64,000 bases of DNA from Escherichia phage RB14, in the sequence record NC_012638.1. One strand, given 5' to 3'. The translations under genes and the position numbers were made by a program. Under the pieces are notes generated by a model that worked only from the letters and a program-made list of their open reading frames with translations, made no database searches and had not been told where the DNA came from. Positions 36,093 to 36,918 of the stretch are shown here, one piece after another (within the stretch, counting starts at the first letter, position 1; the number at the start of each line of letters is the position of its first letter).

Positions 36093-36168
36093 TGGTCGAG
36101 GCAGTAGGGATCGAACCTACGACCCAGGACTTAGAAGGTCCTTGCTCTTCCTTCTGAGCTATGCCTCG
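36093..36168 (-). tRNA. tRNA-Arg (anticodon UCU)
   Basis: Cloverleaf read by hand: acceptor CGAGGCA/TGCCTCG, anticodon loop CTTCTAA, T-loop TTCGATC, encoded CCA. Confidence 0.85.
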
Positions 36169-36172
36169 TATT

Positions 36173-36247
36173 TGGCGGACGTGATAGGATTCGAACCTAT
36201 AACCAATCGCTTAACAGGCGATCGCTCTGCCATTGAGCTACACATCC
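36173..36247 (-). tRNA. tRNA-Asn-like (anticodon GUU), atypical, possible pseudogene
   Basis: D-arm GCTC/GAGC, anticodon arm ATCGC-CTGTTAA-GCGAT, T-arm ATAGG-TTCGAAT-CCTAT, CCA; 5' acceptor strand looks 2 nt short. Confidence 0.45.
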
Positions 36248-36249
36248 AA

Positions 36250-36336
36250 ATTGGTGGGGAGTGATGGAGTCGAACCACCCGAGTCGCAATGACAATGAAT
36301 TTACAGTCCACACCGCTACCTCTACGGGATAACTCC
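36250..36336 (-). tRNA. tRNA-Tyr-like (anticodon GUA), class II with long variable arm
   Basis: Acceptor GGGGAGT/ACTCCCC, anticodon loop CTGTAAA, 15-nt variable arm, T-loop TTCGACT, CCA; D-arm atypical. Confidence 0.55.
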
Positions 36337-36347
36337 CCTAATTAATT

Positions 36348-36422
36348 TGGTGGCCCTGGGTGGAATTGAACCACCATCTGGCGATTATGAGTCGCTTGCT
36401 TGAACCTTCCAGCTACAGGGCC
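36348..36422 (-). tRNA. tRNA-Ile (anticodon CAU, T4 type)
   Basis: Acceptor GGCCCTG/CAGGGCC, anticodon loop CTCATAA, T-loop TTCAATT, CCA. Confidence 0.85.
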
Positions 36423-36423
36423 T

Positions 36424-36499
36424 TGGTGCTGATTGACGGAATCGAACCGCCGACCTTCTCATTACAAGTGAGTTGCTCTACCTACTGAGCTAAATCAGC
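36424..36499 (-). tRNA. tRNA-Thr (anticodon UGU)
   Basis: Acceptor GCTGATT/AATCAGC, anticodon loop CTTGTAA, T-loop TTCGATT, CCA. Confidence 0.88.
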
Positions 36500-36504
36500 A
36501 AAAC

Positions 36505-36594
36505 TGGCGGAGGCGATAGGATTTGAACCTATGAGTCGCCGGAGCGACTGCCGGTTTTCAAGACCGGTGCATTAAACCACTCTGCCACGCCTCC
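36505..36594 (-). tRNA. tRNA-Ser (anticodon UGA)
   Basis: 90 nt class II; acceptor GGAGGCG/CGCCTCC, anticodon loop CTTGAAA, long variable arm, CCA. Confidence 0.9.
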
Positions 36595-36596
36595 AG

Positions 36597-36668
36597 TCTC
36601 CATACAAGGATTTGAACCTTGGACCTCCTGATCCCAAATCAGGCGCTCTACCAAACTGAGCTACACGG
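36597..36668 (-). tRNA. tRNA-Pro (anticodon UGG), CCA not encoded
   Basis: Anticodon loop TTTGGGA, T-arm CAAGG-TTCAAAT-CCTTG; 3' end 2 nt from tRNA-Ser 5' end. Confidence 0.8.
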
Positions 36669-36678
36669 AGTAAATTAA

Positions 36679-36752
36679 ATTGGAGCGGATAATGAGAATC
36701 GAACTCACATCATCAGATTGGAAGTCTGAGGTAATGCCATTATACGATATCC
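36679..36752 (-). tRNA. tRNA-Gly (anticodon UCC)
   Basis: Acceptor GCGGATA/TATCCGC, anticodon loop CTTCCAA, T-loop TTCGATT, CCA. Confidence 0.9.
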
Positions 36753-36757
36753 GCAAA

Positions 36758-36844
36758 TTTGGTGCGAGAAGTGGGACTCGAACCCACAAGGAAATCATTC
36801 CGCAGCATTTTAAGTGCTGTGCCTTTACCAATTTGACCATTCTC
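36758..36844 (-). tRNA. tRNA-Leu (anticodon UAA)
   Basis: 87 nt class II; acceptor GCGAGAA/TTCTCGC, anticodon loop CTTAAAA, long variable arm, CCA. Confidence 0.88.
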
Positions 36845-36845
36845 G

Positions 36846-36918
36846 CGCTGGGAATAAAGGACTCGAACCTTTGCATCCTGGAATCAAAATCCAGTGCCTT
36901 ACCAACTTGGCTAATTCC
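36846..36918 (-). tRNA. tRNA-Gln (anticodon UUG), CCA not fully encoded
   Basis: Acceptor TGGGAAT/ATTCCCA, anticodon loop TTTTGAT, T-loop TTCGAGT; abuts tRNA-Leu. Confidence 0.85.

Follow-up and report, generated by a model that had tools for sequence, protein, structure and literature searches.

In phage T4 the transfer RNA (tRNA) genes are clustered, and host enzymes process their polycistronic transcript. In T2L, RB1 and RB3 (AJ880101, AJ884577 and AJ884578) the tRNA region carries genes for tRNA-Met(CAU), Tyr, Asn and Arg where T4 has segB (Brok-Volchanskaya et al. 2008, PMC2330249). Homing of segB in T4 x T2L crosses was nearly 100% efficient and replaced the CAU-Tyr-Asn-Arg block, and the preferred 27-bp site of SegB was mapped within the tRNA-Asn gene (PMC2330249). 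We examined the tRNA cluster of Escherichia phage RB14 within a stretch of 64,000 nucleotides (nt) from record NC_012638.1, referred to here as the window, where an original prediction made from the letters alone had described ten tightly packed tRNA genes at 36093-36918, with Tyr-like and Asn-like genes beyond the T4 set.

Results

ARAGORN was run on the whole 64-kb window, and the genes were compared with the Rfam tRNA model RF00005 (gathering score 29). Exactly ten tRNA genes were found, all on the minus strand at 36093-36920; the predicted number therefore stands, but the cluster starts at 36920. The minus-strand order given earlier for the eight T4 species (Gln, Leu, Gly, Pro, Ser, Thr, Ile and Arg) is the order of the ARAGORN calls, and the two additional genes read between Ile and Arg, a class II Tyr gene (anticodon loop CUGUAAA) and an Asn gene (loop CUGUUAA), were both called and are absent from T4. 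The ten genes, with the evidence for each, are as follows.

36848..36920, minus strand: tRNA-Gln (UUG), no encoded CCA (ARAGORN; Rfam, 67.4 bits)
36760..36846, minus strand: tRNA-Leu (UAA), class II, CCA encoded, 100% identical to T4 (ARAGORN, Rfam)
36681..36754, minus strand: tRNA-Gly (UCC), CCA encoded (ARAGORN, Rfam)
36597..36670, minus strand: tRNA-Pro (UGG), no encoded CCA (ARAGORN, Rfam)
36505..36594, minus strand: tRNA-Ser (UGA), class II, CCA encoded, where T4 has UAA (ARAGORN, Rfam, T4 alignment)
36424..36499, minus strand: tRNA-Thr (UGU), CCA encoded, anticodon arm with an A27·A43 mismatch (ARAGORN, Rfam)
36348..36422, minus strand: CAU-anticodon tRNA of Ile2 (ileX-like, lysidine) type by sequence, 100% identical to T2L (ARAGORN, Rfam, alignment)
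36252..36338, minus strand: tRNA-Tyr (GUA), class II, A73, CCA encoded (ARAGORN, homology; PMC13096335)
36173..36247, minus strand: tRNA-Asn (GUU), G73, CCA encoded, canonical cloverleaf (ARAGORN, Rfam, covariation)
36093..36168, minus strand: tRNA-Arg (UCU), CCA encoded, 100% identical to T2L (ARAGORN, Rfam, alignment)

Nine of the ten matched RF00005 with 59-74 bits, tRNA-Tyr being the exception, and chance cannot yield ten cloverleafs within 828 nt. Reading of the trailers gave a spacer of 1 nt between Gln and Leu and of 2 nt between Pro and Ser, and CCA was encoded in eight of the ten genes, Gln and Pro being without it; the dimer arrangement and the absence of CCA from these two genes had been correctly predicted. 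Alignment with T4 and RB3 placed trna.2 on one side of the cluster and rnaD-rnaC-e.8 on the other, with conserved gene order and both the Gln-Leu and Pro-Ser dimers. We are highly confident that this is the T-even (Tequatrovirus) tRNA cluster in its T2L/RB3-type form, that is, ten functional tRNA genes followed by rnaD, rnaC and a terminator hairpin.

Many Tequatrovirus genomes matched the 22-kb stretch around the cluster at 96-98% identity, none of them exactly. In RB3 the region was 99.4% identical; its annotation lists the same ten tRNAs followed by rnaD and rnaC, and segB is absent. Seven point differences separate the RB3 region from the window, four of them in Thr and one in the Tyr anticodon stem (G30·U40 in the window, G-C in RB3). 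T2L, also without segB, matches the window at 100% in its genes for the CAU tRNA, Tyr, Asn and Arg, but it lacks Thr and carries two extra open reading frames (ORFs), trna.1 and trna.2, inside its cluster, whereas the window has the compact RB3 layout. T4 (NC_000866, 70.9-72.5 kb) has the same flanking genes, an identical Leu gene and near-identical Gly, Pro, Ser and Thr genes, and shares with the window the two dimers and rnaC; it differs in having segB between Ile and Arg, replacing Tyr and Asn, in its Ile(CAU) and Arg alleles (61% and 62% identical to the window, respectively), and in its Gln anticodon arm. In a three-way alignment the window and T4 were almost identical from Leu to Thr; the divergent interval opened in the D arm of the CAU tRNA and closed in the T arm of Arg, so that the CAU and Arg genes are different alleles from those of T4. 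Tyr and Asn are missing from T4 because segB, a GIY-YIG homing-endonuclease gene, fills the Ile-Arg interval.

At least 394 phage records contained the Tyr-Asn segment (at least 80% covered), compared with 126 for segB. Most sequenced relatives have Tyr and Asn as normal parts of the cluster, and T4 is the exception. The newness implied by placing these genes beyond the T4 set does not hold, as the CAU-Tyr-Asn-Arg block was published in 2008 (PMC2330249) and is annotated in hundreds of Tequatrovirus records; the genes, Tyr and Asn included, had been sequenced in 2005-2008, and the ten-gene cluster is a known one, annotated widely. That genes were lately captured from the host was considered and rejected, as identity was just 66% between Tyr and E. 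coli tyrT and 62% between Asn and asnT. The nearest relatives outside Tequatrovirus were other phages and E. coli plasmids of about 110 kb.

The tRNA-Asn gene reads GGAUGUG-UA-GCUC-AAUGGCA-GAGC-G-AUCGC-CUGUUAA-GCGAU-UGGUU-AUAGG-UUCGAAU-CCUAU-CACGUCC-G-CCA. It was the top scorer of the ten at 74.1 bits, forming a cloverleaf aligned to RF00005 model positions 1-71 with no deletion. Its acceptor stem has 7 bp, the D arm contains GG, the 7-nt anticodon loop has U33, and the T arm carries GTTCRA. U8 and A9 are both there, followed by a 4-bp D stem and a short 7-nt D loop; the 2 nt that the original prediction had thought missing at the junction of acceptor stem and D arm are thus in place, with no gap at that point of the alignment. 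The identity elements of E. coli asparaginyl-tRNA synthetase are the GUU anticodon and G73; both were read in the gene (the discriminator G73 at 36176), and by these elements the phage gene is assigned to tRNA-Asn. Fourteen diverse Asn genes, taken from phages, E. coli and a plasmid, were aligned; standard pairs filled 98% of the cells of the cloverleaf, with compensatory (two-sided) changes at 18 of the 21 pairs and support for all four stems, and the pairing was unmatched by any of 500 shuffles or slid registers. The weight of the covariation is lessened in that the set was made up of ARAGORN-called genes, so that the fold was partly presupposed. The earlier suggestion of a pseudogene was rejected on the full-length Rfam alignment and its score, the unbroken stems of an intact cloverleaf, the covariation, and the 100% identity to T2L.

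Three results speak against the assignment of the Tyr gene. Generic models gave it the lowest standing of the ten, below the RF00005 gathering score and with a best clan match to tRNA-Sec (29.9 bits); the ARAGORN structure has a C12·C23 mismatch in the D stem; and the minimum-free-energy fold of the gene taken alone was not a cloverleaf (z = -0.65), with only the acceptor and T arms as expected. In the ARAGORN call it is a class II cloverleaf whose variable stem has 3 bp. Bacterial tyrosyl-tRNA synthetase recognizes as identity elements a GUA anticodon, A73 and a long variable arm, and the gene has GUA within its CUGUAAA loop, the discriminator A73 at 36255, and a variable arm of 15 nt. Its identity was 100% to T2L, 86/87 to T6, 93% to E. 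coli plasmid pEC881_2, and 84% to T5. The variable arm TGTCATTGCGACTCG and the T arm are the same in the window, T6, pEC881_2 and T5, and the anticodon stem covaries (GUGGA/UUCAU in the window, GUAGA/UCUAC in pEC881_2, GCUGA/UUAGU in T5, and GCAGA/UCUGC in E. coli). In the MAFFT alignment of Tyr genes, distant members were misaligned in the D arm and acceptor stem, and this alignment was left out of the pair counts; the compensatory changes among the window, T5, pEC881 and E. coli were read by eye. We accepted the gene as tRNA-Tyr because its homology to T6 and T5 tRNA-Tyr outweighs the weak model scores. T6 tRNA-Tyr was seen by Northern blot and was relatively unstable (Chihara et al. 2026, PMC13096335), an instability that fits the weak fold; expression of the window gene would follow by likeness to this near-identical gene.

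Plasmids of about 110 kb from E. coli (pEC881_2, NZ_CP019027, 2454-2700) carry an Asn-Tyr-Thr tRNA trio, in which the 93% identical Tyr gene has the compensatory anticodon-stem changes given above, and other phage genera also hold Tyr genes 84-94% identical to that of the window. This type of tRNA-Tyr appears, from these matches, to be widely shared among unrelated mobile elements.

Of the E. coli tRNAs compared, ileX was closer to the CAU tRNA (76% identity) than metT (63%) or the initiator (60%). In the anticodon arm of the CAU tRNA a core of 15 nt, GCGACTCATAATCGC, is identical to that of ileX, and the acceptor stem (GGCCCUG/CAGGGCC) has the C4-G69 and C5-G68 pairs that are TilS determinants, with A73 as discriminator. 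These are the sequence features of an Ile2 (ileX-type) tRNA, and Ile2 appears the better reading than Met, with lysidine as the predicted modification; the original prediction had likewise read this gene as Ile. Elongator or initiator Met, the label given by ARAGORN and GenBank, is less likely in view of the ileX-like anticodon arm and the acceptor pairs.

Eight positions, all within the anticodon stem-loop (36878-36894, minus strand), set the Gln gene apart from the alleles of T4, T6 and T2L; compensated swaps affect three of the five stem pairs, U takes the place of C at loop positions 32 and 38, and the remainder is identical. RB3 has the window allele, and the pattern suggests that the anticodon arm alone was replaced or is under diversifying selection. 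The Thr anticodon arm GAGCAACTCACTTGTAATGAGAAGGTC (36452-36478, minus strand) contains the A27·A43 mismatch and is unlike T4 and RB3 at three positions; the exact 27-mer was found in 34 IMG/VR viral contigs, within at least 20 different tRNA-Thr bodies. Compared with E. coli thrU the 30:40 pair is flipped, and UAAUC/A, the published cut site of the PARIS nuclease AriB (cleavage at the slash), becomes UAAUG/A. CCA is encoded for Ser (36505-36507) and for the CAU tRNA (36348-36350), whereas T4 has UAA after Ser and none after Ile; the host CCA-adding enzyme should therefore be needed for two tRNAs rather than four, and would complete Gln and Pro, the sole genes without an encoded CCA.

The Asn gene includes, in its 3' part, the following site.

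36171..36197, minus strand: 27-bp GGTTCGAATCCTATCACGTCCGCCAAA, running from the Asn T arm to 2 nt past CCA, identical to the preferred SegB site mapped in T2L

The recognition sequence of SegB spans 27 bp, begins with GGTTCRANTCC and ends with CCAR. The bases that set the window site apart from the Ser site are exactly G6, A16, G18, A26 and A27, the five positions named in PMC2330249. The 3' part of Asn is on this basis a predicted SegB cleavage site. With T4 SegB as query, tblastn found no segB at the tRNA locus, the sole match in the window being 27% identical and about 18 kb away; the locus, with its CAU-Tyr-Asn-Arg block and no segB ORF, is the segB-less (T2L/RB3-type) allele. As the preferred cut site of SegB lies in the 3' part of Asn, a co-infecting segB+ phage would convert CAU-Tyr-Asn-Arg to the T4 form, and the RB14 locus would be a susceptible recipient for SegB homing; cleavage and homing are here carried over from the literature on near-identical genes.

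The distant match is a 239-amino-acid (aa) ORF at 18049-18768 (minus strand; E = 1e-9). A second copy of segB was rejected on its 27% identity, and the ORF probably encodes a further GIY-YIG homing endonuclease of the seg type that is free-standing and has no relation to the tRNA locus.

Downstream of Arg, two stable RNA genes and a hairpin were found.

35971..36091, minus strand: rnaD (species 2 stable RNA), 100% identical to RB3 rnaD and 86% to T4
35827..35965, minus strand: rnaC (species 1 stable RNA), 99.3% identical to the RB3 gene and 97.8% to the T4 gene
35753..35776, minus strand: intrinsic terminator-like hairpin of 10 pairs (7 of them G-C) followed by a T run (consensus scan)

No Rfam family matched rnaC or rnaD, which were identified solely by homology to the annotated T4 and RB3 features. 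The hairpin is likely, from its sequence, to be the end of the tRNA/stable-RNA transcription unit. A promoter scan of 35500-38400 lends no support to such a unit, with nine sigma-70-like sites against 8.8 in shuffled sequence; since this is no excess, the start of the unit was not located and no promoter is claimed. By analogy with T4, a single polycistronic transcript would cover the cluster, and host RNase P and 3' nucleases would release the tRNAs from it, Gln-Leu and Pro-Ser passing through a dimer stage.

A 187-aa ORF (35099-35662, minus strand) stands between e.8 and the terminator that follows rnaC; RB3 does not have it, and homology of the window with RB3 ends at about 35746. The ORF matched PHROG 2280 (unknown function) with E = 1.4e-53 and had no significant Pfam match; the Pfam and PHROG searches gave no function for it.

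Discussion

The tRNAs of the cluster would top up the pool for an AT-rich phage proteome that is rich in Asn and Tyr, and Tyr at least would resupply a tRNA that is destroyed by host nucleases (Septu, retron-Eco7 PtuAB). Both systems cleave tRNA-Tyr within its variable arm (PMC13096335, PMC11555353). Overexpression of T6 tRNA-Tyr rescued infection under Septu, deletion of the tRNA region sensitised T6, and T4, without Tyr, could not escape (PMC13096335); rescue from retron-Eco7 depended on the dosage of tRNA-Tyr (PMC11555353). As a point against a strong effect, Septu cleaved T6 tRNA-Tyr too, and one copy gave T6 just intermediate resistance (PMC13096335). The protection therefore comes from dosage or resupply and not from intrinsic resistance. 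Carried over to the near-identical gene of the window, these results suggest that RB14 would be better equipped than T4 against defences that degrade tRNA-Tyr.

It is possible, and we propose it tentatively, that anti-defence is the primary role of some of these genes, Tyr, Asn and Thr being kept mainly to outlast host tRNA-cutting immune nucleases and not for codon usage. The effect of Tyr is the published one (PMC13096335, PMC11555353). Asn and Thr would, on the same proposal, be poorly cut by PARIS AriB, as the bases of its cut site (U36-A-A-U39-C40/N41) are altered in them. E. coli tRNA-Lys, Thr(UGU) and Asn(GUU) are AriB substrates with the cut at UAAUC/N, and the Lys, Thr and Asn variants of T5 jointly rescue infection from PARIS (PMC12409363). 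The window Asn has UAAG39, like T5 Asn, where E. coli asnT has UAAUC/C; the window Thr has UAAUG40 where thrU has UAAUC/A. The retention of the exact Thr anticodon arm in the 34 viral contigs with otherwise differing tRNA bodies, and the Gln alleles that differ in the anticodon arm only, point the same way. The proposal is weakened in that tRNA-Lys, the main target of AriB, is absent from the cluster, so that Asn and Thr alone cannot defeat PARIS; in that another T4-like contig has an Asn allele with the full UAAUCA motif; in that T4 was rescued from PARIS without any phage Asn (PMC12409363); and in that the phage Tyr is itself cut by Septu (PMC13096335). Asn may resist PARIS AriB through G39, to judge from its sequence.

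Codon supply is the classical view of the T4 tRNAs. A role restricted to it, in which the ten tRNAs only raise the supply for phage-preferred codons and thereby sustain late protein synthesis, seems to us rather unlikely. Window ORFs contained 63.5 Asn and 46.3 Tyr per 1000 codons compared with 33 and 31 in an E. coli gene sample, and all codons read by the cluster were enriched over that sample: UUA 3.3-fold, GGA 3.5-fold, UCA 3.5-fold, ACA 8-fold, AUA 5.5-fold, AGA 12-fold, AAU 3.5-fold, and UAU 2.2-fold. The sample was small (3004 codons), which tells against leaning on these ratios. Tyr and Asn are moreover single-isoacceptor families for which the host already has several gene copies, T4 manages without either, and the phenotype published for Tyr is related to defence (PMC13096335). 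Asn may still supply the heavily used AAU and AAC codons.

The two functional lines meet the SegB results in a broader proposal that we regard as speculative and unlikely: the Tyr-Asn block (with His in some relatives) would be an anti-defence module, Asn G39 and Thr G40 would be AriB escape variants, and SegB homing would destroy the module. If true, the price of carrying segB would be that T4-type phages are sensitive to systems like Septu and possibly to systems like PARIS. For Tyr, this half of the proposal is already published (PMC13096335, PMC11555353). Finally, that Asn is a decaying pseudogene and Tyr perhaps merely tRNA-like has almost no chance of being correct: the low Rfam score, D-stem mismatch and non-cloverleaf fold concern Tyr only, with nothing to match them for Asn, which has the best Rfam score of the cluster, GUU, G73, CCA, covariation in four stems and identity to T2L, while Tyr is 1 nt away from an expressed T6 gene (PMC13096335) and 84% identical to a T5 tRNA-Tyr that is convertible to an effective amber suppressor according to its GenBank note.

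Among the relatives, a 168-kb T4-like contig (IMGVR_UViG_2974787500_000001, 4275-5292) has the same cluster with an eleventh gene, tRNA-His(GUG), between Asn and Arg. The Tequatrovirus genes beyond the T4 set (Tyr, Asn and His) all have GUN anticodons. tRNAs with GUN anticodons form the queuosine family and are also the target set of colicin E5.

T6 (MH550421), with the order Gln, Leu, Gly, Thr, Met, Tyr, segB, Arg, is intermediate between the two forms of the locus. Its Tyr gene is in the same place after the CAU tRNA, segB stands where the window has Asn, Pro and Ser are missing, and its CAU and Arg alleles are of the T4 type (the window Arg being 62% identical to that of T4 and T6). The annotated tRNA-Thr of T6 (MH550421, 2648-2722) combines the 5' acceptor strand of Pro (TCCGTGTAGCTCAG...) with the 3' strand of Thr, which leaves the acceptor stem broken. 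From these sequences Pro and Ser appear to have been deleted in T6 by recombination between similar D arms, leaving a Pro/Thr hybrid, and this hybrid may be the real pseudogene of the family. T5 (AY543070) belongs to an unrelated phage family and has its tRNA genes in another genomic context; it shares with the window the Tyr type described above and, in Asn, G39 next to the anticodon loop, the Asn bodies being otherwise dissimilar.

The T4 reference thus represents a minority state of this locus, and the value of the present analysis lies less in discovery, which is small, than in correction. Because T4 carries the minority state, a T-even genome compared with T4 alone will seem to hold novel genes where RB14, like RB3 and T2L, has the ordinary ones.

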